Source of the DNA: a virus
DNA length: 52,596 nt
IMG/VR virus record: IMGVR_UViG_3300048057_000049
Coordinates: 1-52,596 of that record
Reading direction: 5' to 3' (one strand)
Every line of letters begins with the position of its first letter. Position 1 is the first letter of the stretch. Below are positions 1 to 52,596 of this stretch, in pieces. The position numbers and the translations under genes are program-made. The notes under the pieces were generated by a model. It saw only the letters and a list, made by a program, of their open reading frames with translations. It was not told the origin of the DNA and did no database searches.

Positions 1-650
1 GCTAGACACCATGGTCTTGGCACAAGAGCACGATCTAATCCTTGGAGACATCACGGCCGCATCTCCAGTGCTAGACACCATGGTCTTGGCACAAGAGCAC
101 GATCTAATCCTTGGAGACATAGAGACACAGTCACCAAAGCTAGACACCATGGTCTTGGCACAAGAGCACGATCTAATCCTTGGAGACATCACGGCCGCAT
201 CTCCAGTGCTAGACACCATGGTCTTGGCACAAGAGCACGATCTAATCCTTGGAGACATAGAGACTCAGGCACCTACGCTAGACACCATGACGGTTAGCGA
301 GGGCATAGTCTTAGATCTAGGAGACATCACGGCCGCATCTCCAGTGCTAGACACCATGGTCTTGGCGCAGGAGCACGATCTAATCCTTGGAGACATAGAG
401 ACTCAGGCACCTACGCTAGATACCATGACGGTTAGCGAAGGCGTAGTCTTAGATCTAGGAGACATCACGGCCACATCCCCAGTGCTGGACATCATGGTCT
501 TGGCGCAGGAGCACGATCTAATCCTTGGAAACATAGAGGCCCAGGCACCTACGCTAGATACCATGACTTTAACTCAAGATCATTACCTGATTCTTGAGGA
601 CATAGAAACCCAAGCACCAGTGCTAGACATCATGACATTCATCAAAATAG
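1..650 (+). repeat. 69-bp (23-codon) tandem repeat array inside the fibre gene, about 9.4 units
   Basis: Near-identical units ctagacaccatggtcttggcacaagagcacgatctaatccttggagacat..., alternating between two variants in the last third of each unit. Confidence 0.95.
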
Positions 651-757
651 AAGGTTTATACGTAGTTTTTACCGAGCGTGAACCATCTATATTGTTTAGT
701 AGCCAAGAGCCTGCTATAGTTTTTGCAGAGCGCAGTCCGTCAGTAAAAATTCAGTAA
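2..757 (+). CDS. C-terminal part of a LamG-domain tail-fibre-like protein. It is the same ORF as 51624..52596, read across the contig junction. Contains about nine 23-aa tandem repeats followed by a unique C-terminus.
   Basis: The frame is open from base 2 (LDT MVLAQEHDLILGDITAASPV ...) with the stop at 755-757. Bases 1-116 equal 52481-52596 and the reading frame is continuous across the overlap. Confidence 0.7.
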   Translation, partial: LDTMVLAQEHDLILGDITAASPVLDTMVLAQEHDLILGDIETQSPKLDTMVLAQEHDLILGDITAASPVLDTMVLAQEHDLILGDIETQAPTLDTMTVSEGIVLDLGDITAASPVLDTMVLAQEHDLILGDIETQAPTLDTMTVSEGVVLDLGDITATSPVLDIMVLAQEHDLILGNIEAQAPTLDTMTLTQDHYLILEDIETQAPVLDIMTFIKIEGLYVVFTEREPSILFSSQEPAIVFAERSPSVKIQ

Positions 758-772
758 ATAGGAGTTATACCC

Positions 773-1156
773 ATGGCAATGCTTTATAACAGAGTTTTAG
801 ATGAAGGCTTAAACGTTCTAATTACAGCAACCGGATTAGCGGATAAGATGTATCTTTGTTCCGCTGAACCAACCACATACACCGAAGCGATCACCACATA
901 TGCGTTAGGTTGGGATAATGGTAATCTTGTCATTACAGGTCCAGCAGACAGAGCAGGTGGAGGCCGAGAAGTTACAATGGCCGCATTAAATAACAATGGT
1001 ATTGCCACAGCTACAGGGTTCGCACTTTGGTATGCCATTGTTGATGATGGTGCAACAGAGTTGCTTGCCACAGGTCCATGTACATCACAGGCAATAACCA
1101 GCGGCAATTCATTCTCAACCAACCAGGTGAAGATCGGCATACCTGATCCGGCATAA
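773..1156 (+). CDS. hypothetical protein, fibre-associated by position
   Basis: 127-aa ORF with a SD-like aggag upstream of the ATG, directly after the fibre gene. The antisense ORF 784..1215 is judged spurious. Confidence 0.5.
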   Translation: MAMLYNRVLDEGLNVLITATGLADKMYLCSAEPTTYTEAITTYALGWDNGNLVITGPADRAGGGREVTMAALNNNGIATATGFALWYAIVDDGATELLATGPCTSQAITSGNSFSTNQVKIGIPDPA

Positions 1157-1168
1157 GAGGGACTAGAT

Positions 1169-1501
1169 ATGACCGTCCTGTCTTCAGTGAATGATCGTGG
1201 CACGAAAATTGTCACGATTACATTCTATGACGAAAACGATCAGATCGTTCAACCAACCAGTGCTACCTGGACATTGGTAGATGAATACGGCCGTGTGATC
1301 AACAATCACAATCGAGATCCAGTATCTCCCATAGCCAACACTTATGACATCACCTTATATAATGATGATCACGCCTATCAAGATGGTGACAAGCGCCACC
1401 TCATTATAGAAGCCATTTATGATAATGGTGTTGTTGCCGATTTAACAATGAAGCAGCAAGCAACATGGGAAGTTATTGATCTGCCGTTCATAACAACATA
1501 G
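1169..1501 (+). CDS. hypothetical protein
   Basis: 110-aa ORF with SD-like gaggga upstream. It is the last rightward gene before the convergent terminator. Confidence 0.5.
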   Translation: MTVLSSVNDRGTKIVTITFYDENDQIVQPTSATWTLVDEYGRVINNHNRDPVSPIANTYDITLYNDDHAYQDGDKRHLIIEAIYDNGVVADLTMKQQATWEVIDLPFITT

Positions 1502-1531
1502 TTGACAGATCGAGATTGAATCGTCCATAAT
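1502..1531 (+). promoter_or_regulatory. sigma70-like promoter candidate (TTGACA, 18-nt spacer, CATAAT)
   Basis: TTGACA at 1502-1507 and CATAAT at 1526-1531, in the convergent intergenic region. Confidence 0.35.
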
Positions 1532-2922: not shown

Positions 2923-3138
2923 TTAATTTGTGGTGCGCTTAGGACGGCCACGTGTTTTACCGCCAGGTCGATATCTTATTTTGCGGCCGCGACTACTGTT
3001 CTTTGCTCCAGAAACACGAACATTACGCTCGCGCCAATTCCAATAATGGCTAATAGTGCCATCTTTCTTCTTATACTTACGATATTCTTTGCGCCACTTG
3101 CCTCGCCCTTTTCCATGTCTTGTTCCGCGTTTCTTCAT
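2923..3138 (-). CDS. very basic 71-aa ORF; coding status doubtful
   Basis: Rich in K and R, with a single Met. It overlaps the 3' end of the ParB-like ORF by 62 nt. Confidence 0.25.
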   Translation of the reverse strand: MKKRGTRHGKGRGKWRKEYRKYKKKDGTISHYWNWRERNVRVSGAKNSSRGRKIRYRPGGKTRGRPKRTTN

Positions 3139-3652
3139 GACTGTATCCTCTCGCTTGAAGTTTGCTGATTTTATGGATTAGTTCACGCTCGCGTCCTGTT
3201 ACCACATTGCCTGTGACAGTCCACCAGGCCGGATCTTTTGTTTGCACAATTATGCGACTATCTCCATCGAGGCTGATTGGCGCATTTGAAAGATCGACTT
3301 CTCCTAATATCTCAGCTGATATTTTAGAGATCCCAGCAATGCAGGCCGCAGCAGATCGATGATTACCGTCAGTTACAACGTAATACTTTGTATTAAACAC
3401 AACATATCGAGTAACAACTATACAAGGAGATGGCGTATATTGTCCCTGTTGCATTTTCTTCACCAATGACGAGATTGTAAACGGCCGATATGTTTCATAC
3501 AAAATCGAGTCACAGGGGATCTTCATTTTCTTTGCCGGTCTATAGATCTGCACTTGGGCCAGTTCAGATGTCCCCCAGGCGACCAGCACCTCACGTAATG
3601 CAATGCGCGTTTTTGCTTTGTCTGATTCTACAAATTCATACTGACTATCCAT
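3077..3652 (-). CDS. ParB N-terminal / ParB-like nuclease domain protein
   Basis: The motif VVTDGNHRSAAACIAG matches the conserved DGxHR box of the ParB/Srx fold. 191 aa. Confidence 0.6.
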   Translation of the reverse strand: MDSQYEFVESDKAKTRIALREVLVAWGTSELAQVQIYRPAKKMKIPCDSILYETYRPFTISSLVKKMQQGQYTPSPCIVVTRYVVFNTKYYVVTDGNHRSAAACIAGISKISAEILGEVDLSNAPISLDGDSRIIVQTKDPAWWTVTGNVVTGRERELIHKISKLQARGYSHEETRNKTWKRARQVAQRIS

Positions 3653-3818: not shown

Positions 3819-4664
3819 TCAAATTAACGTCATTTGTAATGGTTTAGAAGGAAGGTCATAGTTCATCCAAACGACCTCAGTTGCTTTTCTTGTGCCGTTG
3901 ATCCTTGATTCGGTCTCCATCATATTCCAGCCGGCCAAGCAATTAGCATATAGTTCATGATGATAGCCGGAGATCATTACGGAACCTCTTAACTTTACTA
4001 CAACGTCTAGTAATTTTTCATGATCTTCTAGTGTCATTTCGTGGGCATATGCCGTTTGTTTCCAGGAAGCACGAGTTTCAGCTACATAAGGAGGATCTAG
4101 ATACCACATGACGTTACGTTGATCATAGCGATCTAGTAAGTCAAATATATCCAAACATTCAATCTGAACACCACGCAGGCGATCAGCGACTGCATACAAT
4201 CTATCTACCCGAGCGAACGAAGTGGCAGCAGCCGTTAAACGGCCGTTAGATCTGGAGGCTGTCCCAACCACTTTTTGACGACGCCAACCGGTCTGCCATT
4301 GCGCCGTAGGTCCGGCAATTGACATATAACTGCGAATATAGAAACGTCGTGCTATTTCAAGGTCGTCAAGACCACCTTCATTTGCCGCTGCTTTAAATTC
4401 TTTCAGAGCATAAGGAGTTTTCCAGAGTGCTTCAATCAATTCCTCTTCCCTATCACGAAGCATACGAAAAAAAATAACTACATCTTCACACAGGTCATTA
4501 TAAACTTCCAGTGTGGCGCGATCGCGTTGGAGAAGAATAGCGGCAGATCCACCAAAACCCTCAATAAATACCTCTTCATCCTGCATCAAAGGAATTAACC
4601 ATCTTGCTAGGAGCCATTTACTTCCATGATATCTAATAGCTGGCCTAATCCCCATTATGCCCAT
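3819..4664 (-). CDS. dam: DNA adenine methyltransferase, Dam/D12 class
   Basis: N-terminal RYHGSKWLLA box and catalytic WYLDPPY motif. 281 aa. Confidence 0.8.
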   Translation of the reverse strand: MGIMGIRPAIRYHGSKWLLARWLIPLMQDEEVFIEGFGGSAAILLQRDRATLEVYNDLCEDVVIFFRMLRDREEELIEALWKTPYALKEFKAAANEGGLDDLEIARRFYIRSYMSIAGPTAQWQTGWRRQKVVGTASRSNGRLTAAATSFARVDRLYAVADRLRGVQIECLDIFDLLDRYDQRNVMWYLDPPYVAETRASWKQTAYAHEMTLEDHEKLLDVVVKLRGSVMISGYHHELYANCLAGWNMMETESRINGTRKATEVVWMNYDLPSKPLQMTLI

Positions 4665-5303: not shown

Positions 5304-6701
5304 TTATAAATCAATCGGTGCATGTTCTTTTCGCATCAGATTGGCAAAGCGCATCTTCTCAGGGCTGAAGAATAGATCTATTTCTCCAACCGGTCCATTA
5401 CGGTTCTTGGCAACATCAATCTCGCAGATACCTGCGCGTTCAGTGCCAGGATTATAGTACTCGTCACGATACAGAAATATGACAATATCAGCATCCTGTT
5501 CCATATCGCCACTTTCGCGCAGATCTGAAAGCATAGGTTTTTTAATTGCACGCTGCTCAACGCCGCGATTAATTTGGGCCGCAGCCAAGACCACTGTATT
5601 AAGCTCCATAGCAATCTGTTTAAGCCCACGACATATCTGACCAATCTCTTCCACGCGATTCTTAGCCGTTGAACGGCCGCGCATCAATTGAAGATAGTCC
5701 ACCGTGATTAAAGAAAAATAGCCATGTTCGGCAAATAGCCGATGAACCATTGCTTCTAACTGATCGATAGCTAGACTAGGGACAGAATGTAAATACATTG
5801 GGTATTCGGACATCTTTCCAATGGCTCGCTGAACATCTTGCCATTTTTTTTCAGGGAGTGAGAAAGGGTGCAAGATTTGCTTATACGGTATCTGCGTCAT
5901 AGTAGACAGCATGCGTATGGTTAATTGCTGAGTTGACATCTCTAAATTGAAGCACGCTACACGTTTGCCCTTAGCAATCAAATTCATTCTTATTGCCTGC
6001 TCCCATAGACTCTTGCCCATACCAGGACGGCCAGCCTCAATAACAAGAGCGCCTTGCTCAATCCCTTGCAAAAGTTGGTCAAGATCTCTAAAGCCAGTGA
6101 TCAATCCAGCATCCATTGATGTTTTTTGATTAACTCGTCTATCTCCAAGAACATCCAAAATTTGACTGCCGGCTACATAGCTAGAAATAGGCTCATTATC
6201 ATTGGCGTCACCGCCAATCTTGCGAATTCCATCGAGTGTGGTAGATACAATAGAATCAATGGTATTCTCGCCATTGTAGGCAGCAGAAGCGATCTGACCA
6301 GCCAGGGCGATAGCTCTACGCCGATTGTAGTCAGTACGCACAATAGAAGCATAGCTATGTAAATTGGTGGAGGTTGGAACGGAATTACATAAGTCAATAA
6401 CCTTCACCTCGACGTTATCCGCAATGTCCCAATCGTTAAGGACATCGCAAACTGTAATCACGTCTATAGCCATCTTATTCTCTTGCAAATGCTTGAACGC
6501 TTTAAATATTTGCCGGTACAGACCACGATAGAACATTTCCGGCAACAGCTTCACCTCACTGAGCCGGTCAGGTTCAATAAACAGCGAGCCAAGAACGGCC
6601 GCTTCTGCTTCTTCGCTATAGGGAGGTAAAAAGGTATCGGGAGTTTCATATACGGCCGATGTATGGCCGTTGGACGGTTTTGTAGTGGTTGCCATATTCA
6701 A
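5304..6701 (-). CDS. dnaB: replicative DNA helicase DnaB
   Basis: N-terminal PPYSEEAEAAVLGSL box, Walker A GRPGMGKS and a RecA-like C-terminal domain (DADIVIFLYRDEYY). 465 aa. Confidence 0.9.
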   Translation of the reverse strand: MNMATTTKPSNGHTSAVYETPDTFLPPYSEEAEAAVLGSLFIEPDRLSEVKLLPEMFYRGLYRQIFKAFKHLQENKMAIDVITVCDVLNDWDIADNVEVKVIDLCNSVPTSTNLHSYASIVRTDYNRRRAIALAGQIASAAYNGENTIDSIVSTTLDGIRKIGGDANDNEPISSYVAGSQILDVLGDRRVNQKTSMDAGLITGFRDLDQLLQGIEQGALVIEAGRPGMGKSLWEQAIRMNLIAKGKRVACFNLEMSTQQLTIRMLSTMTQIPYKQILHPFSLPEKKWQDVQRAIGKMSEYPMYLHSVPSLAIDQLEAMVHRLFAEHGYFSLITVDYLQLMRGRSTAKNRVEEIGQICRGLKQIAMELNTVVLAAAQINRGVEQRAIKKPMLSDLRESGDMEQDADIVIFLYRDEYYNPGTERAGICEIDVAKNRNGPVGEIDLFFSPEKMRFANLMRKEHAPIDL

Positions 6702-6707: not shown

Positions 6708-7709
6708 TTACAGTTTTCTAATATCACGCACTGCGACTGCGATCTTAACACGGAGAGTATCCAAGGGCATACGCATCATTTGCGGGTAGCCGCCTTCAAT
6801 TTTATCTACTATTTTATCATAGCCGATTTCTGCTAATTGGGCGATTGCATCTTGTTGTTTATATCGACTAGGATTGTTTTGCATGACTTCAATGATCTGT
6901 TCTTGAATATCCAGTACACCAGGCCAGCTATCATGAGCACTAGGGAGATAGTCGGCGGAATGTTCCCAGGTACTCATAATATCCACAATCGAAGGCCAGG
7001 CATTCTTCTTGCCTTTCCAATACCCGTTGTACCAGAAATTTGGCGTTTGTGATCGACTGTATCGCTTGAAAACGAGATCGGCCGTAATACCAGCACGAAA
7101 CATTTTCATGACTTTTGCTTCATCATCTTCGAGCACCAGAAGTGGACTCAACTTACATACGTGACAGACCATAGACTTAAGTTGCTCATAAGCTCCACCG
7201 ACATCATAAGTATGGCCATTGACTTCCCTTTGAGTCGTCGGTGTCGTTTCGTGTGTCGTTTTTGTCGTTTCAAGCTGGCTATAAAGAAAAGACAGGTCGT
7301 TATCCAAGAATAGATGGTTATCCAAAGTAGATGGTATATCAATAAATAGATCCTCTTTAGTATATATATATATATAAGATAGCAACGACAAAACGACAGA
7401 AACGACAATGGGCCTGGTTTGCAGGTGATCCAGGATATAAGCGACAGAGCAAAATTGGTGCGCCTGCTCCATCAAGATTTTCTTTGGTTGTGCTTCAATG
7501 CTACGGAAATAACGAAGGTTGCCGCGCTTGTTTTCAATGACGAAACCTTCAGTATGCGGGAGAGATTTTGCATATCGTTGAACGCTACGCAGCGTCAATC
7601 CTGATGCATCTGCGTATTCAGCCAGATCCACACGAACCAACGGTCCAAATCTCAGGCCAACCTGGATTGCTTTCACCAGGTCGGTTACGCCATCTCCATT
7701 TTTATTCAT
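6708..7709 (-). CDS. putative replication initiator (lambda O-like organisation)
   Basis: Sits directly upstream of dnaB and has an N-terminal HTH-like segment (GLTLRSVQRYAKSL). The central low-complexity linker is encoded by an iteron plus AT-rich block at 7234-7407. Confidence 0.45.
   Translation of the reverse strand: MNKNGDGVTDLVKAIQVGLRFGPLVRVDLAEYADASGLTLRSVQRYAKSLPHTEGFVIENKRGNLRYFRSIEAQPKKILMEQAHQFCSVAYILDHLQTRPIVVSVVLSLLSYIYIYTKEDLFIDIPSTLDNHLFLDNDLSFLYSQLETTKTTHETTPTTQREVNGHTYDVGGAYEQLKSMVCHVCKLSPLLVLEDDEAKVMKMFRAGITADLVFKRYSRSQTPNFWYNGYWKGKKNAWPSIVDIMSTWEHSADYLPSAHDSWPGVLDIQEQIIEVMQNNPSRYKQQDAIAQLAEIGYDKIVDKIEGGYPQMMRMPLDTLRVKIAVAVRDIRKL
7234..7407. repeat. ori-like block inside the initiator gene: direct TGTCGTTT x3, an AT-rich core with (TA)8, and inverted TGTCGTTT x3
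   Basis: TGTCGTTT at 7242, 7254 and 7263. Extra GTCGT at 7234 and 7296. tagatggt(t)at x2 at about 7310-7337. (TA)8 at 7361-7376. aaacgaca (the reverse complement) at 7383, 7391 and 7400. Confidence 0.5.
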
Positions 7710-8551: not shown

Positions 8552-8772
8552 ACCCTCAAACAATAATCCCGCAAAATATTATAGTCCATTCGCGCCAAAC
8601 CTAATTGTATTTTCAATACAGGACAGGTCGCGACCGTGTAGTGCCGCGCCTGAAGATATCAAGATACATAAAGAATAAAACAAAAAAACAAAACCAGAGA
8701 ATCACAAACCACAAAAAAATCACAAACACACAAACATATGTAAAGAGAATAGGAGCAACATAAAAAGAGAGA

Positions 8773-9130
8773 TAGTTTCATTAGTTGATCCAGTTACAAC
8801 AATTCGATTAAAAGTCCACTTGAAACAACCCCAAAAAAGAAGCTCCGCAAAAGAAAAAACAAAAGAGAGGGAATAAAAGAAAAAAAGAAAGTAGTTTCAT
8901 TAGTTGATCCAGTTGCAACAACTCGATTAATGGTCTGCTTGAAACAACGCCAAAAAAGAGGGCTCCGCCAAAGAAAAGATGAAGAAAAACAAAAAGAAAA
9001 ACAGAAAGAAAAACAAAAGAGAGGGAATAAAAGAAAAAAGAAAGTAGTTTCATTAGTTGATCCAGTTGCAACAACTCGATTAATGGTCTGCTTGAAACAA
9101 CGCCAAAAAGAGGGCTCCGCCAAAGAAAAG
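8773..9130. repeat. three dispersed copies of a ~90-bp element with nested inverted repeats, separated by A-rich spacers
   Basis: Copies start at 8773, 8892 and 9045 (tagtttcattagttgatccagttgcaacaactcgattaatggtctgcttgaaacaacgccaaaaaagagggctccgccaaagaaaag). Confidence 0.9.
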
Positions 9131-9373
9131 AGAAAGACGGCCGAACCTCTGCGATCTGGCAGCCACCCCCCTAACAAAGAAAAAGACGGGTGGACATCTG
9201 CGATCTGGCAGCCACCCCCCTAACAAAGAAAAAGACGGGTGGACATCTGCGATCTGGCAGGCAGCCCCCCTAACAAAGAAAAAGACGGCCGAACCTCTGC
9301 GATCTGGCAGGCAGCCCCCCTAACAAAGAAAAAGACGGCCGAACCTCTGCGATCTGGCAGGCAGCCCCCCTAA
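9121..9373. repeat. five tandem 49-50-bp repeats
   Basis: Unit taacaaagaaaaagacgg[ccgaacct|gtggacat]ctgcgatctggcag[g|c]ca[g|c]cccccc. Unit boundaries at 9172, 9221, 9271, 9321 and 9371. Confidence 0.95.
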
Positions 9374-19965: not shown

Positions 19966-19975
19966 ACACACATAG

Positions 19976-43649: not shown

Positions 43650-46600
43650 GTCAAGCATGGAAAGGTCCCTATGCAGAGATACGTCTTGCATCTGCACCAG
43701 GTACAGTTAAATCAATAGTAGACAACGGCCGTCCGGTCTATGTCATCCCCCTGCTATCTTCCGAGGGCAATTGGATTGCCGGTAATTTTGGCAGCGGTTC
43801 GGCCACAGCCCCGCTAGACAATCGAGACAATTATCCTTTCGTCGAGAAAGGGGATATCATGCGTACTTACTGTTACAGTGAACGTGTGAGTCCGTCTACC
43901 TATACGGCCGTCGTCGCCATGTTTATCGTGCAAGAAATCGCGATTGACGAAGTAGGGGGAACAGTTGAATATAGCGGCGAAGGACTAAGTGAAGAACTAC
44001 AACGCAAGATCCTTGATAAAGACTTCATAGCTATCTCCTACTCCGGTACAGCACCGATCGTCAACGAAACCTATGTTCAGTTAGCTGCAGCAGATGTAAA
44101 GGCAGACGACTTCTATAATGGAGCCGTGATAGAGGTAGACGGCAAATTTGCAGATGTTGACGACTACACAAATTCCAGCAATAGATGCAATGTTACATGG
44201 CGTGATGGTTTTATTGACAGCACTAACCGGCCGTACAACCTCTATTTAGGCAAGGCACCAGACGACATTACGCAGGCAATTTCTAATAGTCAAACCTGGT
44301 GGACTTCGAGCATAAGCGGATCTCCAAACGGCACATTCATTCCAGTAAACGGCCGTTATTGCATAGATCTACTAAAAGACATAGTAACCGAATCAGGTTG
44401 GTATTTTCGTGAGCAACTTAGCACCACCGTAGAACGAAAACTCTATTGGTTCGATTCCAATGCGGCCACTCCTATTGATAGCGGAGTTTACGTAGCGGCA
44501 ATGTCAGAATTCACAGCAGCGGGACTGGAGTCAAACACGAACAATGCGCCGGTAATAAACTGTACCAGGTCGCGATCATGGCGTGATAAATGGACTCGAA
44601 TTTACGTTGCTTCAAACGATGGCATCACATTAAATGGGTTAACAGGAGCAGATGTCACAGTTCCAACAGGATTCAGTGTCGATTATGCCAATTCGCTTGT
44701 CATCCACGACGACGCAGAAGCAGGATTGATACAGCCACAAATAACCGAAGCATCCTTTGTGTTCAAGGAGATCTCAGCCACAAACACCAGCAGTGTGCAA
44801 AGAAAAGAAACACAGCAGCGTGTATTTTATGCGGCCATAGCAAAACTACGCGCACGAAGCCGGTTAAACAGTACCTACAATTTACGAACCGTTCTCCTAC
44901 GTGACATCCAGGTTGGAGAAACATTACATCTAAAATATACCAAGAGCCAGAACGGTGAAATTCTTTGGACAGTTGACGACGATCTATGGATAAGGAACAT
45001 CAAGCCCAGTGCAGATAGTTCAACAGGATTAAGAATATTAGACATTGAACTAGGCGAGCAATTCGTTTCCGGTCCGAAAGACGGAAATGAGGCAGTGGCG
45101 CAGGCCATAGCAAACAGCGGCGCGGCCTCAAATATCATCGTCAGTGGAGGAACAGGCACAGCACCAGGAACCCATTATCACACACAGTATTTTCCATTAG
45201 ATGCCAGTGCAATAATTACCGGACTAACACGCATAGCTAACGGTCTGCAATTTCAGGCAGCACAGACCATCTCCACCACAGCCGGAAATCTCACATTGCA
45301 GCCGGCAGCAGATCTACTCCTCTATCCAACTAGTACCTTCATCAAGATCGACGGCACACTGCAATTCCAGGGGCCAGAGAAAATCTCCACCACAACAGGC
45401 GATCTGACTATTCAGCCACAAGGCGACCTGATCCTAACGCCCAACAACACCTTCATCAAGATCGACGGCACACTGCAATTCCAAGGGCCGGAGAAGATCA
45501 CCACCACAACAGGCGATCTGACTATTCAGCCACAAGACGATCTAGTTCTCTCACCTAACAGCACCTTCGTCAAGATCGACGGCACACTGCAATTCCAAGG
45601 GCCGGAGAAGATCACCACCACAACAGGCGATCTGACTATTCAGCCAACCAACAATCTGGTACTGACTCCTAATAACAGCGTCGTAGAGCTAACCCAATTT
45701 ATCGTATTCAGAGGGGAGGGATACGTAGCCCCAGGCGCAACCGCATTTACACAGCAGTTTAAGATAGATACAGATGCAGGAGCGATCTATTGTGCCTATA
45801 TCGAGGCCGACGAAATGCACGTCAGGCTCTTCCAGGCCGATATTACTATGGCCAAGGCTAACGGTCTAGTAGTAACAGATTCAGTTGCCGTCGTCGCTCA
45901 GGTGCACACAGTTGCTCCAATCGACAGTTCCAGCTATCTCTATGTTGAAGATAATCCGGTTTTTGGCGATGCTCAAGTATTCAACGAAGGAGACTGGATT
46001 CGAGAACGAGCATTTAGACGCAGCACAGGCGTTAATATGTTCAATGTTTGGAGCCAGGTCTCCAACTACGTTGACCAAACAGACGGCACACAACGTTGGG
46101 ATGCAACAACAAGAAAAGCAGGATCAAGTGATCAAGCCGTTGGTTATGATATTGGCGTTGGCACACCTGTTTTAGGATACGGAAAATCGGGCCAAGGTTG
46201 GTGGGAAGTCGATGCTCGTCGGGAACAAGGACCGTTTGTGCGTTTCGGCGCATGGTATGGTGATGCTCCATGGAAATCCGCCAATCAGGTTACACACATC
46301 CTTGAAGGCAATCTCGTAAGTTTAACCGGAACACAAGAGTATGGCTTCTTCACTGGAGATATTAACGGGCCACACGTCCTGTTATCAGATATTGACAATA
46401 CATTCCAAGACATTGAAATCCATTTGACAGAAGGTCTAAATGACAACGCCTATATCAGATTGTATGCACTTCGATTAGTGTCCGATTTAGATTTGGATGT
46501 GCGAGTCAATGGCGACATCAGTGCATCAGGAATAACAAGATCATCCGGCTCAGGATCTTATTACACTCACATAGAGGAAGATCCCACGTGGATGCAACCG

Positions 46601-48001
46601 GACTCAGATTGGATAAATAATGACGTAGGCCAATCAGGAACAATCAAATTTAATTTACAGCCCATCACCCATAATATGACCAGGATGTCGATTAAATTTT
46701 ATGTTTCAAATCATGCCTTTGTCAATGACACCTGTCAATTATTTGCCCAGCTATTTAAGTCCGATCAAACAACCAAACTCAGTGACAAGATTAAATTGTC
46801 TACACAAAACAGTCTGGCCAATGGTACAGATGCACTGTTTGAAGCGCACTTCACGAGTTTAGATATCAGTGCATCAGACGCAGAGTGGGATGCAGCGATC
46901 ATACAAATCTGGTGGGTATACCAAATTAGAGGGACATCACCAGTCCTAGATCTAGATGCTACCACAGGACTCACCATCCACACTGAAAGCTACCCGCCCA
47001 ACAATGGCTATCATCGTATTGTCTTTAACAACAGTACCACAGATAGAGTATTAGGCCAGATAAACTGTTTTGAAACAACGGCAACAAGTGCCGATTTCGG
47101 ATTGTATATGTATGAGGGTTACGACAACCCTACGCATAACACCATGACTCTCCAGGTCGAGGCACAAACAAACTATGATGCAGACCTGGAGTTGGCTGCT
47201 TATGGTAATAGTGGAAATGATAGCCCAGCCATAGTTCATCTTTATTCAAATAACGCCTATCCAGAGATCGGGATGCAGGGCATCATCTATGCCAGTGATG
47301 GTATGAATCTTGGCGGAAGCAATACACCATCCCGAGGCCAGATAGTTCTCGACCAAGGTTCTGGTGATGGTTACATTCTAACCGGACTATCCAGCGATTT
47401 GACAGCACTGACAACTCAAGGAATGGACACCAATGAAACCTTCATTCAAATTAGCAAGATCAGTGGCTTAAATGGTGGCGTATTAATAAAAGGCGGCGCA
47501 GAAGGAAGTGCAGACAGAGCATTACAATTAGTTGGATCAGCGAATACGCCCACGGCCGTAAGAACAACGGCCGGTTTCGCGCCATTAGTATTGATCGGGC
47601 AAATAGATGGTACTTCAGTAGGCGCAGATAATAATGCCGTCGCTTTGTATAGTGGTCCTTACATGCGCTGGGTAATGCAAGGAGATGGCGACACCTATCA
47701 AGACGGCGATATGTACGACACACAAGACTTCACGCCTGATTTCTTGGACGATGTTAGCGCAATACGCGCCACAATGATAGCCACAGGCAAGGCTATTATA
47801 AGTAAAATAAAACCAGATGTTGACTACACAAAAGAATATCTGGAAGAGCTAGAATTGCTAAATGGCAAGCATCGCAATAGAAGTAAGTTGTCAGAATTGC
47901 ACAGCGGTGCCATTTGGCAGCTACATGAGAGACTTGTAAATATAGAGCAAAAGAAATCCTTGTTTGAGCGCATATGCACTATGTTCTCACGGAGAAAGTA
48001 A
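43646..48001 (+). CDS. tail tip / central fibre (host-specificity-like) protein
   Basis: 1451 aa, downstream of the tape measure gene. Contains four 38-aa tandem repeats. Confidence 0.65.
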   Translation: MSQAWKGPYAEIRLASAPGTVKSIVDNGRPVYVIPLLSSEGNWIAGNFGSGSATAPLDNRDNYPFVEKGDIMRTYCYSERVSPSTYTAVVAMFIVQEIAIDEVGGTVEYSGEGLSEELQRKILDKDFIAISYSGTAPIVNETYVQLAAADVKADDFYNGAVIEVDGKFADVDDYTNSSNRCNVTWRDGFIDSTNRPYNLYLGKAPDDITQAISNSQTWWTSSISGSPNGTFIPVNGRYCIDLLKDIVTESGWYFREQLSTTVERKLYWFDSNAATPIDSGVYVAAMSEFTAAGLESNTNNAPVINCTRSRSWRDKWTRIYVASNDGITLNGLTGADVTVPTGFSVDYANSLVIHDDAEAGLIQPQITEASFVFKEISATNTSSVQRKETQQRVFYAAIAKLRARSRLNSTYNLRTVLLRDIQVGETLHLKYTKSQNGEILWTVDDDLWIRNIKPSADSSTGLRILDIELGEQFVSGPKDGNEAVAQAIANSGAASNIIVSGGTGTAPGTHYHTQYFPLDASAIITGLTRIANGLQFQAAQTISTTAGNLTLQPAADLLLYPTSTFIKIDGTLQFQGPEKISTTTGDLTIQPQGDLILTPNNTFIKIDGTLQFQGPEKITTTTGDLTIQPQDDLVLSPNSTFVKIDGTLQFQGPEKITTTTGDLTIQPTNNLVLTPNNSVVELTQFIVFRGEGYVAPGATAFTQQFKIDTDAGAIYCAYIEADEMHVRLFQADITMAKANGLVVTDSVAVVAQVHTVAPIDSSSYLYVEDNPVFGDAQVFNEGDWIRERAFRRSTGVNMFNVWSQVSNYVDQTDGTQRWDATTRKAGSSDQAVGYDIGVGTPVLGYGKSGQGWWEVDARREQGPFVRFGAWYGDAPWKSANQVTHILEGNLVSLTGTQEYGFFTGDINGPHVLLSDIDNTFQDIEIHLTEGLNDNAYIRLYALRLVSDLDLDVRVNGDISASGITRSSGSGSYYTHIEEDPTWMQPDSDWINNDVGQSGTIKFNLQPITHNMTRMSIKFYVSNHAFVNDTCQLFAQLFKSDQTTKLSDKIKLSTQNSLANGTDALFEAHFTSLDISASDAEWDAAIIQIWWVYQIRGTSPVLDLDATTGLTIHTESYPPNNGYHRIVFNNSTTDRVLGQINCFETTATSADFGLYMYEGYDNPTHNTMTLQVEAQTNYDADLELAAYGNSGNDSPAIVHLYSNNAYPEIGMQGIIYASDGMNLGGSNTPSRGQIVLDQGSGDGYILTGLSSDLTALTTQGMDTNETFIQISKISGLNGGVLIKGGAEGSADRALQLVGSANTPTAVRTTAGFAPLVLIGQIDGTSVGADNNAVALYSGPYMRWVMQGDGDTYQDGDMYDTQDFTPDFLDDVSAIRATMIATGKAIISKIKPDVDYTKEYLEELELLNGKHRNRSKLSELHSGAIWQLHERLVNIEQKKSLFERICTMFSRRK
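45224..45679 (+). repeat. 114-bp (38-codon) coding tandem repeat x4 in the tail-tip protein
   Basis: ttcatcaagatcgacggcacactgcaattcca... recurs at 45338, 45452 and 45566. A more diverged copy starts at about 45224. Confidence 0.9.
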
Positions 48002-48250: not shown

Positions 48251-48484
48251 ATGAATACAAACGGACAAGCAGCACAGACGGAAGAAACGGTAATTTTGCA
48301 GGCAGTCAGGGTCGCAAATGGCAGCATCCAGATAGGAGTACGTGAAGGTGTGAACGTAACATCTGGACTGCTACGAAGAATAGCAAAGCAGATCGAAGAT
48401 TTAGCAGACAATCAATTGATTCTCATGCCATCTGCACAACAGCCGTCACAGCCGGAAAAGGCCGAGGAAGTCATCAATGAGTAA
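48251..48484 (+). CDS. hypothetical protein
   Basis: 77 aa with SD aaagggg upstream. Confidence 0.45.
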   Translation: MNTNGQAAQTEETVILQAVRVANGSIQIGVREGVNVTSGLLRRIAKQIEDLADNQLILMPSAQQPSQPEKAEEVINE

Positions 48485-50849
48485 AGGATTCTGGAAAATA
48501 TTCCCACAGTATACAGCCGTATCACGCATGTCTGGTTGGGGAGAACTAGTTAAGACCGTCAATGCGATCGGCCGTCCAGTCTCACAAGCGTCAAGCGATG
48601 CCACACCAGCAGATATCCAGAACAACGCCACCAACATCGGCAATGTAATCATGACCGAAGATCGGCAAGGGTACCGTTTCGGTTTTGATTATCGCTTCCA
48701 TGCAACAGAAGAAGCCGCACATATCGCCTGGAAAGAGTTTGTTAAAGCCAGATGGAATAATTACAAACAAGTTATCCCTCTTGATGTAAATCCAGCAATT
48801 ACGGCCGTATCCATTGAAAATGAGCAAGCCGGCTGGTTGGGATGGAAACAGGAGTTTGACACTAAACCAGCATTAGGATCAATACCAGGCTTCACGGGTT
48901 GGGGAGATTGTGAAGGGTGGCAAGCCTATTACACGGCCGTAGAGATGTTAAAAGAGTCGCATCCATGGCGTTATTTTGCATTTGCCTATTCAGCTGGCCT
49001 TCCCGAGTATGGCGTATGGAAACAGCCAGGAATGAAAATTTATCTGGAACTGTGCGAAAAATATCCAGATCGCTTTGGTATCGCGCTTCATGAATATTCG
49101 CTGCATGACAATCTATTTTGGGATGCAACATTTGGAAAATCACCAACAGATGCCATCGGCCATCACGTATTCCGCTTCAAGCACTTATTTAATGCCTGCG
49201 ATCAAATGGGCATTAAACGGCCGCGAGTACAGATAACTGAGTTCGGCTACCATCAAAACAAGTTAGCACCATCTGAAGAAACGACAAAACAACAGCTATT
49301 GCAGGCCGCAGAGGTATATGCGCACTACCCTGAAATAGAGCTAGTAGCATTATGGACTGCCTCAAATAGTTGGAAACCAGTTAATACACAAGTAGAAAGT
49401 CTAATCCCCTACATGAAAAAACAAGCCTCAACACAGGTATGGGATATCGAGGAAGCACCACCCCCAATCCCGCCACAGAATAAGCCGAAGATCGTCATTG
49501 TAAAAGTTGGCCAGGAACATGGACTAACTGCATGGTTAGCCAGTTCGACCTTCGCGTACAACAACTACAAACGCACAATGACAGCCAGTCATGACGACAT
49601 GGTTACGATGATGAAGGCCGGCAATACAGAAAGCTATGTGGTTCTTGTCGATCCAGCATATCCAAGTCAGCAACAGGCCGAGAAGATCATCAAGGCGAAT
49701 AGTTGGAAATACGAAGTCCAATACATAGACCATCCCCCTACTCCAACAGTAGAGGATATATTGCAGTATCGTCCATGTGATACGGAATTGATCACGCAAA
49801 GGTTTGGTGAAAATCCTGATAAGTATAAGCCGTTCGGCTTGCCAGGACACGAAGCCATTGATTTTGCCGTACAATCAGGCTCGCCATTCTACGCTGCTCA
49901 AGACGGTATAGTTGAGTATGCAGGAGACAAAACGCTAAACGGTCTACCATCTCGTTATGGTTGGCATGTATATCTAAGACACAACGTTAAAGGCACTCAG
50001 TTTGTAACAGTCTATGCTCATGCTAGAAAAGATCTGCAGGTAACAAAAGGAGAGGCAGTTAGTGCCGGAGAAATATTAGGCTATTCCGGCAACTCAGGAG
50101 CATCAACAGGCTATCATGAACATTTCGGCATCCTTTGGCCTACCAACACGGGTAATGGCTATCCTATGTGGACTTTTGGCCAGCCGATAGATCCGTACCC
50201 ATACCTCAAGAATAAACCAGCACCGGCACCCCCCATCGTGAAAGCATACGACATGCTACCTTACCTATGTGGCGACGGCCGTATGTACGAAGTTAGACAT
50301 TTAAGCGGAGCAACTGAAATATTCCAAAGTCAGAAAGAGGGCAAAACGTTTTATCAGGTCAAAAACAACCAATACGAAACTTTACGCTATGACGACACGT
50401 ACATATGGCGCGGATTAGACACGTCTCCAGGTCCGGCACCTCTTTATGCCGAACGCCCAGGAGTCAACCGCATGTATACTCAAAGAGAGGAAGGTGCAAC
50501 AGCAGCCAAGTGGCTAAAACGATATATGCGTGAAGGCGAGACATTCACAGAAGAACCGCAACATTGGGTGCAGTTTGGCTATAAGGATAACTGCCAAAAT
50601 TCTAATGCTAACAGCGGTCCATCCAGAAATGTTGTTACTTTTAGTAAGCAGCATGATCTCTATCAATTTGGAAATATTACCCTGGTAGATGTCATCCAAA
50701 TACAAACAAATACCGGCGAGACCATGTTCTATGCAAAGGATTTCGGCCTTGTTGCTTGGGGTATGGAAAGGAAAATGAGTATGATAAGCAAATTCATTAC
50801 CGGCCGTCCCGATCTTGTTAGAGAGCCAGGTTGTTTTACTGAAGTTTAG
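48477..50849 (+). CDS. multidomain cell-wall hydrolase: N-terminal glycosidase-like TIM-barrel region plus M23 (LytM) metallopeptidase domain
   Basis: M23 motifs GHEAIDF (HxxxD) and GYHEHFG (HxH). The N-terminal part has LHEYS and VQITEFGYH, reminiscent of clan GH-A catalytic glutamates. Confidence 0.75.
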   Translation: MSKGFWKIFPQYTAVSRMSGWGELVKTVNAIGRPVSQASSDATPADIQNNATNIGNVIMTEDRQGYRFGFDYRFHATEEAAHIAWKEFVKARWNNYKQVIPLDVNPAITAVSIENEQAGWLGWKQEFDTKPALGSIPGFTGWGDCEGWQAYYTAVEMLKESHPWRYFAFAYSAGLPEYGVWKQPGMKIYLELCEKYPDRFGIALHEYSLHDNLFWDATFGKSPTDAIGHHVFRFKHLFNACDQMGIKRPRVQITEFGYHQNKLAPSEETTKQQLLQAAEVYAHYPEIELVALWTASNSWKPVNTQVESLIPYMKKQASTQVWDIEEAPPPIPPQNKPKIVIVKVGQEHGLTAWLASSTFAYNNYKRTMTASHDDMVTMMKAGNTESYVVLVDPAYPSQQQAEKIIKANSWKYEVQYIDHPPTPTVEDILQYRPCDTELITQRFGENPDKYKPFGLPGHEAIDFAVQSGSPFYAAQDGIVEYAGDKTLNGLPSRYGWHVYLRHNVKGTQFVTVYAHARKDLQVTKGEAVSAGEILGYSGNSGASTGYHEHFGILWPTNTGNGYPMWTFGQPIDPYPYLKNKPAPAPPIVKAYDMLPYLCGDGRMYEVRHLSGATEIFQSQKEGKTFYQVKNNQYETLRYDDTYIWRGLDTSPGPAPLYAERPGVNRMYTQREEGATAAKWLKRYMREGETFTEEPQHWVQFGYKDNCQNSNANSGPSRNVVTFSKQHDLYQFGNITLVDVIQIQTNTGETMFYAKDFGLVAWGMERKMSMISKFITGRPDLVREPGCFTEV

Positions 50850-50867
50850 CTATAGGAGTTAAAAATA

Positions 50868-51122
50868 ATGGCAGTATTAAACGAGGTGAGCCGTGTAGAA
50901 GTTTGGGCTGACCTTATGCGTCAGCTATCAAATGATGGGGATTCGATTGGGATTAACAAAGTAGACCTGAGAGCGGCCGTTAATGCGCTTGATGATTTCA
51001 TGGACAACAATGAGGGCGCGGTAAACTCAGCATTACCACAGCAAGCACGTTCTGCGTTGACAGTGCAGCAAAAGGCGCTGCTCCTGTCATTCGTTGTCCT
51101 CAAAAGGTATAAGGTGATTTGA
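50868..51122 (+). CDS. hypothetical protein
   Basis: 84 aa with SD aggag upstream. Confidence 0.45.
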   Translation: MAVLNEVSRVEVWADLMRQLSNDGDSIGINKVDLRAAVNALDDFMDNNEGAVNSALPQQARSALTVQQKALLLSFVVLKRYKVI

Positions 51123-51123
51123 T

Positions 51124-51618
51124 ATGGCTTCTGGCGATACTTTACTAATTTTCACACCTCAGCACAATGAGCCACCGGCTAGTAACCCGGCAACATTGGA
51201 CACAAGAAACAGTCACCCAGTGCTGGATTTCGATGCCAGCACCAACGAGGACGCGGTGTTTTCGGCAATCATGCCGCGCCTCTACGCTGGCACAACTGGC
51301 ATAACAGTCTATATCCATTACGCCATGAGCAGCGCGACGAGCGGCGATGTTGATTGGGACGTGTCATTTGAGCGAATAGGCGACCAGCAGCTAGACATAG
51401 ATGCCGATAGCTTTGCAGCCGTAAACAGCGTAGATAATACGACCGTTCCTGGCACATCTGGAAATGTTGACGTTGTGAATGTCACGTTTACGGATGGCGC
51501 TGATATGGATTCGGTAGCAGTCGGTGAGGGGTTCCGCATAAAAGTAACAAGGGACGCAGCCAGCGACACGGCGGCGGGTGACGCCGAATTGCTGTTTGTA
51601 GAAATCAAGGAAACATAA
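51124..51618 (+). CDS. hypothetical structural protein (fibre-module)
   Basis: 164 aa, Asp/Thr/Ser-rich and beta-like, immediately upstream of the LamG fibre gene. Confidence 0.5.
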   Translation: MASGDTLLIFTPQHNEPPASNPATLDTRNSHPVLDFDASTNEDAVFSAIMPRLYAGTTGITVYIHYAMSSATSGDVDWDVSFERIGDQQLDIDADSFAAVNSVDNTTVPGTSGNVDVVNVTFTDGADMDSVAVGEGFRIKVTRDAASDTAAGDAELLFVEIKET

Positions 51619-51623
51619 AATAG

Positions 51624-52596
51624 ATGGCTCGTTCTTTTGCTCGCGCCAACTCTGAATATTTAGAGATAAACTCTGCCGTTGTGACCGCAACGCCGCTAAC
51701 AATAGCGTGTTGGTTTTATACTGATAACGTTGGTGCTGGAGTTTTTCAAGACCTCGTAGGTTTATATAATAGCGGGAATGCAAATCAGTATAAATTAGCG
51801 TTCGAGCCAACCAACGCACTGCGAGCCGTTGATTATGGCGCATTTTTCAAATATGCACAGACGACCGGTGTTTCTGTTGACACATGGCATCATGCGTGCG
51901 GTACATTTTACAACGGCGGCTCAAACCGTTCCGTGTTTTTGGATGGCGGCAATAAAGTTACTGATACGTTGTCTGGTGCAAGCGAGGCATTAACGGTAAA
52001 TGAAACGATGGTTGGTGCGGCTGGTGGCTCGTCTAATTTTTTGTCAGGGCGTGTAGCTGAAGCGGCTGTTTGGAATGTGCAGCTAACGGACGCAGAGGTT
52101 GCAATCCTCGGTGCTGGATATTCACCGTTATTTGTCAGGCCGCAAAGTTTAGTTGCCTATTGGCCGCTGGTACGCGGCGACAATGACAAAATTGGCGGCT
52201 ATAACATGACGCCGGTTAATTCGCCCACGTTCGTCGAGCATCCCCCGATGCTCTACCGGTCATTGCCGTTTGTTATAATGCCTGCGGCCACAGGCGGTGA
52301 CCTCAATCTAATCCTTGGAGACATCACGGCCGCATCTCCAGTGCTAGACACCATGGTCTTGGCGCAGGAGCACGATCTAATCCTTGGAGACATCACGGCC
52401 GCATCTCCAGTGCTAGACACCATGGTCTTGGCGCAGGAGCACGATCTAATCCTTGGAGACATAGAGACTCAGGCACCTGCGCTAGACACCATGGTCTTGG
52501 CACAAGAGCACGATCTAATCCTTGGAGACATCACGGCCGCATCTCCAGTGCTAGACACCATGGTCTTGGCACAAGAGCACGATCTAATCCTTGGAG
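51624..52596 (+). CDS. N-terminal part of the LamG-like (concanavalin-type jelly-roll) fibre protein. Runs off the window end and continues at base 117 (or base 2 of the overlap).
   Basis: Pattern LTIACWFY...WHHACGTFYNGGSNRSVFLDGG...FLSGRVAEAAVWNVQLTDAEVAIL is typical of Laminin_G_3 domains. There is no stop before the window end. This ORF is absent from the supplied track. Confidence 0.75.
   Translation, partial: MARSFARANSEYLEINSAVVTATPLTIACWFYTDNVGAGVFQDLVGLYNSGNANQYKLAFEPTNALRAVDYGAFFKYAQTTGVSVDTWHHACGTFYNGGSNRSVFLDGGNKVTDTLSGASEALTVNETMVGAAGGSSNFLSGRVAEAAVWNVQLTDAEVAILGAGYSPLFVRPQSLVAYWPLVRGDNDKIGGYNMTPVNSPTFVEHPPMLYRSLPFVIMPAATGGDLNLILGDITAASPVLDTMVLAQEHDLILGDITAASPVLDTMVLAQEHDLILGDIETQAPALDTMVLAQEHDLILGDITAASPVLDTMVLAQEHDLILG
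52305..52596 (+). repeat. the same 69-bp tandem repeat array (part upstream of the junction)
   Basis: Units begin at about 52305 within the LamG ORF. Confidence 0.95.
52481..52596. repeat. 116-bp terminal overlap identical to 1..116 (circular closure or assembly overlap)
   Basis: Base-by-base identity checked by eye. Confidence 0.9.

Follow-up and report, generated by a model that had tools for sequence, protein, structure and literature searches.

A CGGCCG-core palindrome over-represented in a tailed-phage genome is probably copied from a highly iterated palindrome of Chloroflexota

Introduction

The closest described counterpart of the element analyzed here is the highly iterated palindrome HIP1 (GCGATCGC, with the variants GGGATCCC, TCGATCGA and others), which occurs in cyanobacteria at 300-2,700 copies per Mb with observed-to-expected ratios (O/E) of 55-228 (PMC4390886), and which has been described as over-represented 15-300-fold, with sites that are conserved inside open reading frames (ORFs) as well as in the DNA separating them (PMC5861425). 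In this study, we analyzed the palindrome CGGCCG, together with its flanked form ACGGCCGT, in the IMG/VR virus record IMGVR_UViG_3300048057_000049, whose whole stretch of 52,596 nucleotides is referred to as the window. An initial annotation, made from the letters of the window, had proposed that CGGCCG is strongly over-represented throughout, and that it either resembles a host-specific palindrome of the HIP1 kind or serves a DNA-binding or modification function. Like HIP1, ACGGCCGT is a perfect palindrome of 8 bp whose 6-bp core is of the restriction-site type. Unlike HIP1, its core CGGCCG contains no GATC, it belongs to Chloroflexota rather than Cyanobacteria, and it was first seen in a phage.

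Two other systems offer points of comparison. In E. coli, the Dcm/Vsr pair leaves CCWGG over-represented and CTWGG under-represented, so that a methyltransferase combined with directional repair raises its own palindromic site, while DNA uptake sequences (DUS) and uptake signal sequences (USS) are tied to a known uptake receptor. The Dcm/Vsr bias is a conceptual model for the repair ratchet proposed for HIP1 (PMC4390886), although the effect in E. coli is small compared with the 40-110-fold enrichment reported here. The DUS of Neisseria and the USS of Pasteurellaceae (PMC1939737) are short lineage-specific words occurring about once per kb, in genes and in all reading frames. This density and placement resemble those of ACGGCCGT, but DUS and USS are not palindromic.

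Results and discussion

Over-representation of CGGCCG in the window

Exact counting in the window, which has a GC content of 45.9%, retrieved 68 copies of CGGCCG, 48 of ACGGCCG, 36 of CGGCCGT, 22 of ACGGCCGT and three of the NotI site GCGGCCGC; the number of unique CGGCCG sites is 67 in the non-redundant genome of 52,480 bp, once the terminal overlap is removed. These values agree with the initial annotation, which had counted about 68 sites by eye against some eight expected at 45-46% GC, had noted several NotI sites, and had given example positions that all lie within 0-12 bases of true sites. The expectation is 7.7 copies under Markov models of both order 0 and order 1, and 7.49 +/- 2.72 in 100 dinucleotide-preserving shuffles, with a maximum of 19; CGGCCG ranks first among the 4,096 hexamers at order 0 and also at order 2. 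An 8.9-fold enrichment is, as had been claimed, the opposite of restriction-site avoidance, which was rejected as an explanation for this word, although avoidance does hold for seven palindromes with zero copies in the window (AGGCCT, GGGCCC, CCCGGG, CCGCGG, CTCGAG, GAGCTC and TTCGAA; 7.7-13.9 expected at order 0). Several further palindromic hexamers occur once or twice.

The flanking bases define the enriched unit. An A before the hexamer, a T after it, or both were found at 62 of the 68 sites, in line with the flank preference first noticed by eye: 22 are full ACGGCCGT octamers, the T is missing from 26 (ACGGCCG) and the A from 14 (CGGCCGT), and 6 sites lack both. For both, one or no flank, this corresponds to 22, 40 and 6 sites observed versus 0.54, 3.1 and 4.1 expected. 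Since the bare hexamer is not enriched (6 versus 4.1), the true word is ACGGCCG(T); the full octamer (22 copies versus about 0.5 expected) reaches an O/E of 40. A-flanked sites outnumber T-flanked ones (48 versus 36) in the direction expected from the A-rich plus strand. This strand is a strongly A-rich coding strand over positions 8000-52596, with an AT skew of 0.15-0.38, and the relatives of the phage are similar (A about 31-32%). The half-site (ACGGC/GCCGT) was considered as the real unit and rejected, because masking the sites leaves no residual excess except for the asymmetric GCCGTT. Beyond the octamer, the sequence is unrelated from site to site.

A compositional by-product, whether of the codons used, of the amino acids encoded (Thr-Ala-Val, Gly-Arg) or of biased di- and trinucleotides, would fit the climb of the expectation with Markov order, to 12.1, 24.7 and 50.2 copies at orders 2, 3 and 4, and the preference for the frame xCG GCC Gxx. 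However, order 4 is the maximal order, its model includes the pentamers of CGGCCG itself, and the high-order expectations are inflated by the sub-words of the motif. In codon-level tests on a heuristic gene set (81 ORFs, 91% of the window), the 59 in-gene copies compare with 13.7 +/- 3.4 under within-gene synonymous codon shuffling, 9.4 under codon permutation, and 20.1 under a synonymous shuffle preserving every dinucleotide (z = 11-16; highest shuffled count 31). The enrichment in these codon-preserving tests is 2.9-6.3-fold and never falls below two. Every frame is enriched, with 34 copies versus 8.35 expected in xCG GCC Gxx (O/E 4.1), 18 versus 4.8 in xxC GGC CGx (O/E 3.8) and 7 versus 0.75 in CGG CCG (O/E 9.4), as is intergenic DNA, with 9 copies versus 0.56, although 87% of the copies lie inside ORFs. 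The pressure on CGGCCG acts at the level of DNA rather than protein, which is what the initial annotation had read from the use of all three frames, and, with no half-site excess left after masking apart from GCCGTT, a purely compositional origin is extremely unlikely.

Quasi-periodic spacing along the chromosome is among the traits of HIP-class palindromes. In the phage, the spacing of the sites is roughly Poisson, and near-random at short range by a hand estimate, but five gaps longer than 3 kb lack the motif where 1.3 are expected (P about 0.001). These motif-free stretches (12606-16064, 17087-20214, 20349-23712, 33431-36669 and 44350-47553) may have entered the genome more recently or be under stronger constraint.

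The word in Chloroflexota chromosomes and in other viruses

IMG/VR was scanned for three ACGGCCGT within about 90 bp, and the same triple pattern was scanned for in genomes, one per GTDB species. The genome scan gave at least 120 matches, which only sample the taxonomic range of the word. These matches were of two kinds. High-GC Actinomycetota and others held only the three ascertaining copies, while in at least 36 loci, each no longer than 8 kb and with 7-28 copies, ACGGCCGT ranks first or second among the octamers (first in all but two). Among the matches listed, all the motif-rich loci belong to Chloroflexota. The named carriers are the Ardenticatenaceae metagenome-assembled genomes HK-STAS-CHLO-25, -29, -32, -38 and others, Ca. 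Leptovillus affinis, Ca. Leptofilum and Ca. Promineifilaceae, and further carriers are bins labelled Anaerolineae, Anaerolinea, Chloroflexi, Chloroflexia and Chloroflexota. Pooling 36 of the matches listed (262 kb, 55% GC) gave 634 ACGGCCGT versus 5.7 expected, that is, 110 times expectation; outside the ascertaining clusters, the density is 1.9 per kb and the O/E about 87-110.

A motif-independent test was provided by four 21-kb chromosomal dnaB neighbourhoods (21.3 kb) picked by protein homology, from bacteria with the cellular DnaB closest to that of the phage. In all four, ACGGCCGT is the commonest octamer, with 36, 39, 28 and 36 copies versus about 0.5 expected. These loci hold ordinary core genes (ftsK, recG, icd and a penicillin-binding protein gene), and the dnaB, ftsK and recG neighbourhoods argue against the motif-rich contigs being prophage or mobile DNA. 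In Chloroflexota chromosomal DNA, ACGGCCGT thus occurs about once per 500-600 bp. At 1,600-1,900 copies per Mb and an O/E of 70-110, it lies inside the published ranges of HIP1, which bears out the earlier suggestion of a HIP1-like, host-specific palindrome.

In addition, six IMG/VR contigs (L010, L011, L014, L019, L025 and L027) hold 189 ACGGCCGT in 67 kb, 115 times expectation. Their only matches to the window are in the tail module, with the M23 tail protein at 33-35% identity (L025, L027) and a weak tape-measure match at 24% identity (L014).

The placement of the word in hosts mirrors that in the phage, and both recall HIP1. Host copies fall in the three frames 300, 177 and 82 times, plus 75 outside ORFs, so that the profile over the three frames and then outside ORFs is 47/28/13/12% in hosts and 50/26/10/13% in the phage; like HIP1, the word is found in all reading frames and between genes. 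Single-substitution variants at position 1 are enriched 2-5-fold in hosts, while those at positions 2-4 are mostly at 0.1-1.2-fold, and the phage variants follow the same trend of tolerated outer and avoided inner changes, as has been described for HIP1 (Elhai 2015). A weak extension to a 10-mer palindrome is also shared with HIP1, here AACGGCCGTT, at 513 times expectation in the pooled loci. The word is not HIP1 itself: GCGATCGC is absent from the relatives of the window, and CGATCG occurs 7 times in the window versus 10.3 expected.

The phage differs from the hosts in saturation. Host flank classes (both, one, none) number 634, 142 and 120 versus 5.7, 39.6 and 68 expected; the ratio of full to one-flank sites is 4.5 in hosts and 0.55 in the phage, which has a larger share of seven-of-eight sites, and full octamers reach 0.42 per kb in the phage versus about 1.6-1.9 in hosts. 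This lower saturation fits an imprint far from the host equilibrium rather than a phage-designed signal.

The sites could also be copies of a longer repeated element (tandem repeats, or a hairpin of the REP or MITE type) or have come in with host DNA captured recently. Nine sites do lie within the 69-bp and 50-bp tandem repeats of the window, and two form one intergenic hairpin (dG -24 kcal/mol, z -7), in both cases as initially annotated (hairpin sites placed at 24714 and 24731). Some host loci also hold short tandem arrays with the word: in L041 and L042 (Ardenticatenaceae HK-STAS-CHLO-32, JACKBX010000003.1), units containing it (e.g. ...CATCCCAACGGCCGTRCAAGTC...) produced several hits of the triple pattern over a few kb. 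However, 59 sites lie outside the tandem repeats, the two in the hairpin included, and most of these are isolated octamers or heptamers with unrelated flanks in conserved genes of the phage, such as those for terminase, capsid, tape measure and DnaB. In hosts, palindromy beyond the octamer is barely above chance and 88% of the copies are inside ORFs. REP/MITE-type palindromes, which are imperfect, at least 20 bp long, mostly intergenic and with conserved flanks, were accordingly rejected, and an origin from repeats or mobile DNA is very unlikely. An oriented word of the Chi or KOPS type was also rejected, ACGGCCGT being its own reverse complement.

Host assignment

The host phylum was approached through homology and through word usage. 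A search with DnaB returned a phage clade at 48-56% identity and then the nearest cellular proteins at 42-45%; those with a taxon name are all from Chloroflexota, on contigs of 0.2-5.9 Mb, and include Ardenticatenaceae, Ca. Promineifilaceae, Anaerolineae and Anaerolineaceae. Capsid matches carried an organism name only where the contig had been binned as Chloroflexi or Chloroflexota. For the 63 remaining palindromic hexamers, the O/E profile of the phage correlates with that of the Chloroflexota loci (rho 0.48) nearly as it does with that of its own relatives (0.55), versus 0.15 for CGGCCG-free relatives. Hexamers absent from the phage are strongly depleted in host DNA, such as GGGCCC (3 versus 143) and GAGCTC (1 versus 32), and the four dnaB loci are almost without CTCGAG, GAGCTC, AGGCCT and GGGCCC. 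This common depletion suggests a shared restriction pressure. Chloroflexota as the host phylum is therefore independently indicated by DnaB homology, by the bin names of relatives and by the palindrome-avoidance profile, and filamentous Chloroflexota are the probable hosts. No tRNA genes, which might have hinted at the host, were found in the window. Among GenBank phages, 12 kb of the window gave no megablast match, and tblastn with the terminase retrieved only relatives below 30% identity.

Conservation and loss of the word among related phages

Four independent metagenomic relatives were compared: L001 (=L002), L003, L004 (=L005=L006) and L023, the members of the L001/L002 and L004/L005/L006 groups being 99.9-100% identical to each other. 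Their capsid or terminase is 65-73% identical to that of the window and their DnaB 52%, and CGGCCG is their top or near-top hexamer, with an O/E of 4-8. In codon-level alignments, 3 of 18, 5 of 15 and 3 of 23 window sites are also CGGCCG in the relative. These shares of 13-33%, compared with 2-7% for control G/C hexamers, rest on small numbers and on phage genomes only; in the same comparison the sites recall those of HIP1 (Xu et al. 2018) in being more conserved than control words. Of the sites, 70-85% have no positional conservation: the position of the motif turns over between related phages. Codons at sites have 68% amino-acid identity versus 56% on average, and of the unshared sites 28% differ only synonymously and 72% with amino-acid differences.

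More distant members of the capsid family diverge in their use of the word. L007 and L154, with capsids 56-57% identical to that of the window, contain no CGGCCG (8.4 and 5.1 expected). They also lack TGGCCA, yet are rich in ATCGAT, CGATCG and TTCGAA, an opposite palindrome profile. In L009, L155 and L156, which are distant, CGGCCG is near neutral. L153 (logan:SRR17055913 contig, capsid 59% identical) carries 31 GCGGCCGC in 21 kb, versus 0.9 expected, and two ACGGCCGT, an excess that presumably reflects a different host; a scan of viral contigs for triple GCGGCCGC was dominated by high-GC contigs and did not find that host. Lineage-specific flank variants on a common core, here ACGGCCGT and GCGGCCGC, are a further likeness to HIP1. 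As the same capsid family includes enriched, neutral, motif-free and GCGGCCGC-bearing members, the word is not needed by this phage type as such.

This bears on the proposal that ACGGCCGT is a signal of the phage's own, that is, a binding or modification site of a phage protein (for packaging, replication, transcription or methylation) selected for the phage life cycle. In its favor, two methyltransferases are encoded by the phage (a D12 adenine enzyme and a DUF6094 enzyme fused to an SNF2 helicase), a required A/T flank would give the site an adenine, one strong hairpin between genes is built from two sites, and the shared sites exceed control words somewhat in conservation. Nevertheless, the word dominates host chromosomes and viral contigs without the replication and packaging genes of the window; it is missing, or replaced by a differently flanked one, in family members that share the capsid and terminase module; most sites are not positionally conserved; and the sites run across all genes and frames with the frame profile of the host. 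A purely phage-encoded recognition function, one of the options of the initial annotation, is thus improbable, given the relatives without the motif and no recognisable cytosine methyltransferase in the phage. The DNA-modification option may belong to the same explanation, provided that the host methylates the CGGCCG core.

A similar split is seen in cyanophages. The first 50 kb of the Planktothrix phage PaV-LD (HQ683709) hold 27 HIP1 sites versus 0.34 expected, while Anabaena phage A-4L (KF356198) and Phormidium phage Pf-WMP4 (DQ875742) have no GATC, where about 158 are expected, and no HIP1. PaV-LD mirrors the host word and the other two purge its core, just as the enriched clade and L007 and L154 do in the family of the window. 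PaV-LD differs in being annotated with an integrase and a site-specific DNA methylase, whereas neither an integrase nor a cytosine methyltransferase was recognised in the window.

Origin of the word in the phage

Taken together, the CGGCCG excess is probably the phage copy of the highly iterated palindrome ACGGCCGT of its host lineage. The process that builds and keeps the word in the host chromosome would also act on phage DNA over generations or, alternatively, phage DNA would be selected for the word so as to resemble host DNA. By analogy with HIP1, the most likely route would start from methylation of the CGGCCG core by an orphan (non-restricting) cytosine methyltransferase resident in the host. 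A methylated core would make the word harmless in this host, unlike the palindromes that the phage has purged, and a directional process, be it biased mismatch repair linked to methylation or selection for some 'self' function at the chromosome level, would raise its frequency and resist its decay. Either methylation-linked biased repair or selection may build the word, and both predict the modest excess of shared sites.

In the adaptive form of this explanation, the word would be functional in the host, for instance as a self mark for a nuclease, recombination, uptake or chromosome organisation, a kind of role under debate for HIP1, DUS/USS and Chi, and the phage would be positively selected to carry it rather than passively imprinted. 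The excess of shared sites between diverged phages and the higher conservation of site codons point in this direction, and the amino-acid differences at most unshared sites suggest a pressure strong enough to coexist with protein change. HIP1 sites, in turn, have been reported as conserved by selection (PMC5861425), and a methylation-dependent enhancement of transformation by HIP1 has also been reported (bioRxiv 10.1101/2024.09.10.611283). On the other hand, a biased-repair ratchet also yields apparent conservation, the phage has proportionally more seven-of-eight sites than its hosts, and a palindrome lacks the orientation information typical of Chi or KOPS. We consider positive selection in the phage possible but doubtful.

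Several observations weigh against the copying of a methylated host word. The methylation step is drawn by analogy only: the link to an orphan methyltransferase is central to HIP1, but no cytosine methyltransferase was found among the 69 window proteins in Pfam and PADLOC scans, and a cytosine-5 methyltransferase motif screen of the ORFs of motif-rich host and viral loci found none either. Deamination at the outer C would yield ATGGCCGT/ACGGCCAT, and this C-to-T product shows no depletion in hosts but stands at 2.1 times expectation, unlike in Dcm/Vsr, which speaks against simple Vsr-type very-short-patch repair at the outer C; this repair signature is not supported, although inner variants are depleted. 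The GC content of the phage is 46%, compared with 50-58% in most of the motif-rich host loci. GATC occurs 338 times in the window versus 196 expected, with AGATCT, CGATCT and GATCTA likewise high, whereas in the Chloroflexota loci GATC is at 0.7 times expectation and AGATCT at 8 versus 52, so that the GATC bias, unlike the CGGCCG bias, is phage-specific. No CRISPR-spacer or prophage link to a host was obtained. Finally, the relatives fall into two extremes, 99.9% identity on one side and about 73% at most, in capsid or terminase proteins, on the other; gains and losses could not be polarised with them, and both passive imprint and positive selection in the phage fit the data.

Genome organization and other features

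The window is a tailed-phage genome, and its recognised genes and CGGCCG sites are listed in Table 1; a single-stranded DNA-binding protein (SSB) gene is also present, and no integrase was recognised among the window proteins. Positions 1-116 are exactly duplicated at 52481-52596, an overlap left as an artefact by circular assembly. Removing one copy of these identical ends creates a single junction ORF, which indicates a closed circle of 52,480 bp. This ORF runs from 51624 across the junction to 757 and encodes 537 aa, with about 13 tandem 23-aa repeats (LDTMVLAQEHDLILGDITAASPV and variants) in its C-terminal half; they are encoded by a 69/138-bp DNA repeat, and every second 69-bp unit contains ACGGCCG. 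The 3.6-kb gene at 15814-19455 encodes a 1213-aa protein with an N-terminal DUF6094-type methyltransferase and an SNF2/ResIII helicase, also matches the defence-system helicase models ZorD, DpdE and BrxH, and holds only two CGGCCG.

Three further repeat areas were observed. At 9127-9373, a 50-bp unit is repeated five times in tandem (94% matches) and contains ACGGCCG, GCGATCT and a C-rich run; it is preceded, at 8762-9018, by a 119-bp repeat and A-rich 12-bp repeats, and the 9127-9373 area may be a regulatory or origin-like region. Tandem repeats of 22 bp (3.1 copies, 25254-25321) and 19 bp (5.4 copies, 25399-25500), both 100% identical, sit in a 530-bp non-coding gap with ACGGCCG on both sides; they look iteron-like and are a candidate replication origin or regulatory array. 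A 114-bp repeat in three tandem copies (45335-45677, 88% matches) occupies the motif-free center of the 1451-aa tail gene at 43646-48001.

Table 1. Recognised genes and CGGCCG-containing sites of the window; strand is given where reported.
Feature	Position	Strand	Remark
Large terminase gene	30446-31918		
Major capsid protein gene	35683-36798		
Tape-measure gene	40174-43209		
Tail protein gene, M23 peptidase domain	48477-50849		
DnaB helicase gene	5304-6701	-	
D12 (Dam-like) adenine methyltransferase gene	3819-4664	-	
DUF6094 methyltransferase-SNF2 helicase gene	15814-19455		
CGGCCG sites, dispersed over whole genome	1-52596		n=68
ACGGCCG, 69-bp repeat unit (peptide ITAAS)	54-59		same site as 52534-52539 via 116-bp overlap
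ACGGCCG, 69-bp repeat unit	192-197		
ACGGCCG, 69-bp repeat unit	330-335		
ACGGCCGT, ORF 1169-1501	1287-1294		
GCGGCCGC, NotI-type flanks, no A/T flank	2983-2990		
ACGGCCG, ORF 3077-3652 (-)	3482-3487		
ACGGCCGT, Dam-like methyltransferase gene	4239-4246		
ACGGCCG, DnaB gene	5674-5679		
ACGGCCG, DnaB gene	6596-6601		
ACGGCCG, DnaB gene	6653-6658		
CGGCCGT, ORF 6708-7709 (-)	7079-7084		
ACGGCCG, 50-bp tandem repeat	9138-9143		
ACGGCCG, 50-bp tandem repeat	9286-9291		
ACGGCCG, 50-bp tandem repeat	9336-9341		
GCGGCCGC, no A/T flank	10261-10268		
CGGCCGT, ORF 12218-12649	12472-12477		
ACGGCCGT, ORF 12218-12649	12605-12612		
CGGCCGT, methyltransferase-helicase gene	16064-16069		
CGGCCGT, methyltransferase-helicase gene	17087-17092		
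ACGGCCG, ORF 19979-20428	20214-20219		
CGGCCGT, ORF 19979-20428	20349-20354		
ACGGCCGT, ORF 23546-24616	23711-23718		
ACGGCCGT, ORF 23546-24616	23816-23823		
ACGGCCG, ORF 23546-24616	24072-24077		
ACGGCCG, ORF 23546-24616	24158-24163		
ACGGCCGT, directly after stop codon of ORF 23546-24616	24617-24624		
Intergenic perfect hairpin, 20-bp stem, 5-nt loop	24703-24747		two ACGGCCGT (24713, 24730)
CGGCCG, no A/T flank	24845-24850		
ACGGCCG, intergenic	25388-25393		adjoins 19-bp tandem repeats
ACGGCCG, intergenic	25532-25537		
ACGGCCGT, ORF 28018-28737	28294-28301		
ACGGCCGT, ORF 28018-28737	28594-28601		
CGGCCGT, ORF 29110-29766	29367-29372		
ACGGCCG, ORF 30123-30407	30139-30144		
GCGGCCGC, large terminase gene	30918-30925		
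ACGGCCGT, large terminase gene	31140-31147		
CGGCCG without A/T flank, large terminase gene	31246-31251		
ACGGCCGT, ORF 31933-33504	32455-32462		
ACGGCCGT, ORF 31933-33504	32673-32680		CGGCCG also in L001, L003
ACGGCCG, ORF 31933-33504	33191-33196		
ACGGCCG, ORF 31933-33504	33431-33436		
CGGCCGT, major capsid gene	36669-36674		
ACGGCCG, major capsid gene	36720-36725		CGGCCG also in L001, L003, L004
CGGCCG, no A/T flank	37113-37118		
CGGCCGT, ORF 37171-37566	37326-37331		
ACGGCCGT, ORF 38313-38753	38678-38685		CGGCCG also in L001, L003
CGGCCGT, ORF 38313-38753	38717-38722		
ACGGCCGT, ORF 39496-39846	39765-39772		
ACGGCCG, tape-measure gene	40214-40219		
ACGGCCG, tape-measure gene	40985-40990		
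CGGCCGT, tape-measure gene	41010-41015		
ACGGCCGT, ORF 43646-48001	43725-43732		
ACGGCCGT, ORF 43646-48001	43904-43911		
CGGCCGT, ORF 43646-48001	44228-44233		
ACGGCCGT, ORF 43646-48001	44349-44356		
ACGGCCGT, ORF 43646-48001	47552-47559		
ACGGCCG, ORF 43646-48001	47568-47573		
CGGCCGT, M23 tail protein gene	48569-48574		
ACGGCCGT, M23 tail protein gene	48801-48808		
ACGGCCGT, M23 tail protein gene	48933-48940		
ACGGCCG, M23 tail protein gene	49218-49223		
ACGGCCGT, M23 tail protein gene	50275-50282		
CGGCCGT, M23 tail protein gene	50801-50806		
CGGCCGT, ORF 50868-51122	50974-50979		
ACGGCCG, 69-bp repeat unit	52327-52332		
ACGGCCG, 69-bp repeat unit	52396-52401		
ACGGCCG, 69-bp repeat unit	52534-52539		same site as 54-59 once overlap removed

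Conclusions

The searched literature, of incomplete coverage, gave no description of ACGGCCGT or CGGCCG as an iterated palindrome in Chloroflexota or phages, only primer and cloning-site matches, and the HIP papers PMC4390886 and PMC5861425 mention neither ACGGCCGT nor Chloroflexota. On balance, we lean towards regarding ACGGCCGT as an undescribed HIP-class element of Ardenticatenia/Anaerolineae-type Chloroflexota, as abundant as HIP1 and part of a CGGCCG-core family with lineage-specific flanks (ACGGCCGT, and GCGGCCGC in the host of L153), which phages copy or purge. It is apparently a HIP-class palindrome of new sequence and in a new phylum, seen via a phage, and a second counterpart of HIP1.

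About three decades of work on HIP1 have brought no agreement on its origin or role, partly because it is essentially one phenomenon in one phylum. If our reading is true, ACGGCCGT would provide a second independent natural system for asking why such palindromes exist, whether through a repair ratchet or through a chromosome-level or gene-transfer function, and a palindrome of different sequence and phylum, with HIP1-like density, frames and substitution pattern, would allow comparative tests of these models. Whether a CGGCCG-specific orphan methyltransferase co-occurs with the word, and whether flank variants track methyltransferase or repair genes, become answerable questions, and the capsid-sharing phages that copy the word, purge it or copy a flank variant constitute a natural experiment. 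EagI and NotI are predicted to cut the phage DNA often unless it is methylated. The word would also be a simple and strong sequence marker with which uncultured phages could be assigned to Chloroflexota hosts of this type. Filamentous Chloroflexota abound in wastewater treatment plants and sediments, and most of them have not been cultured.

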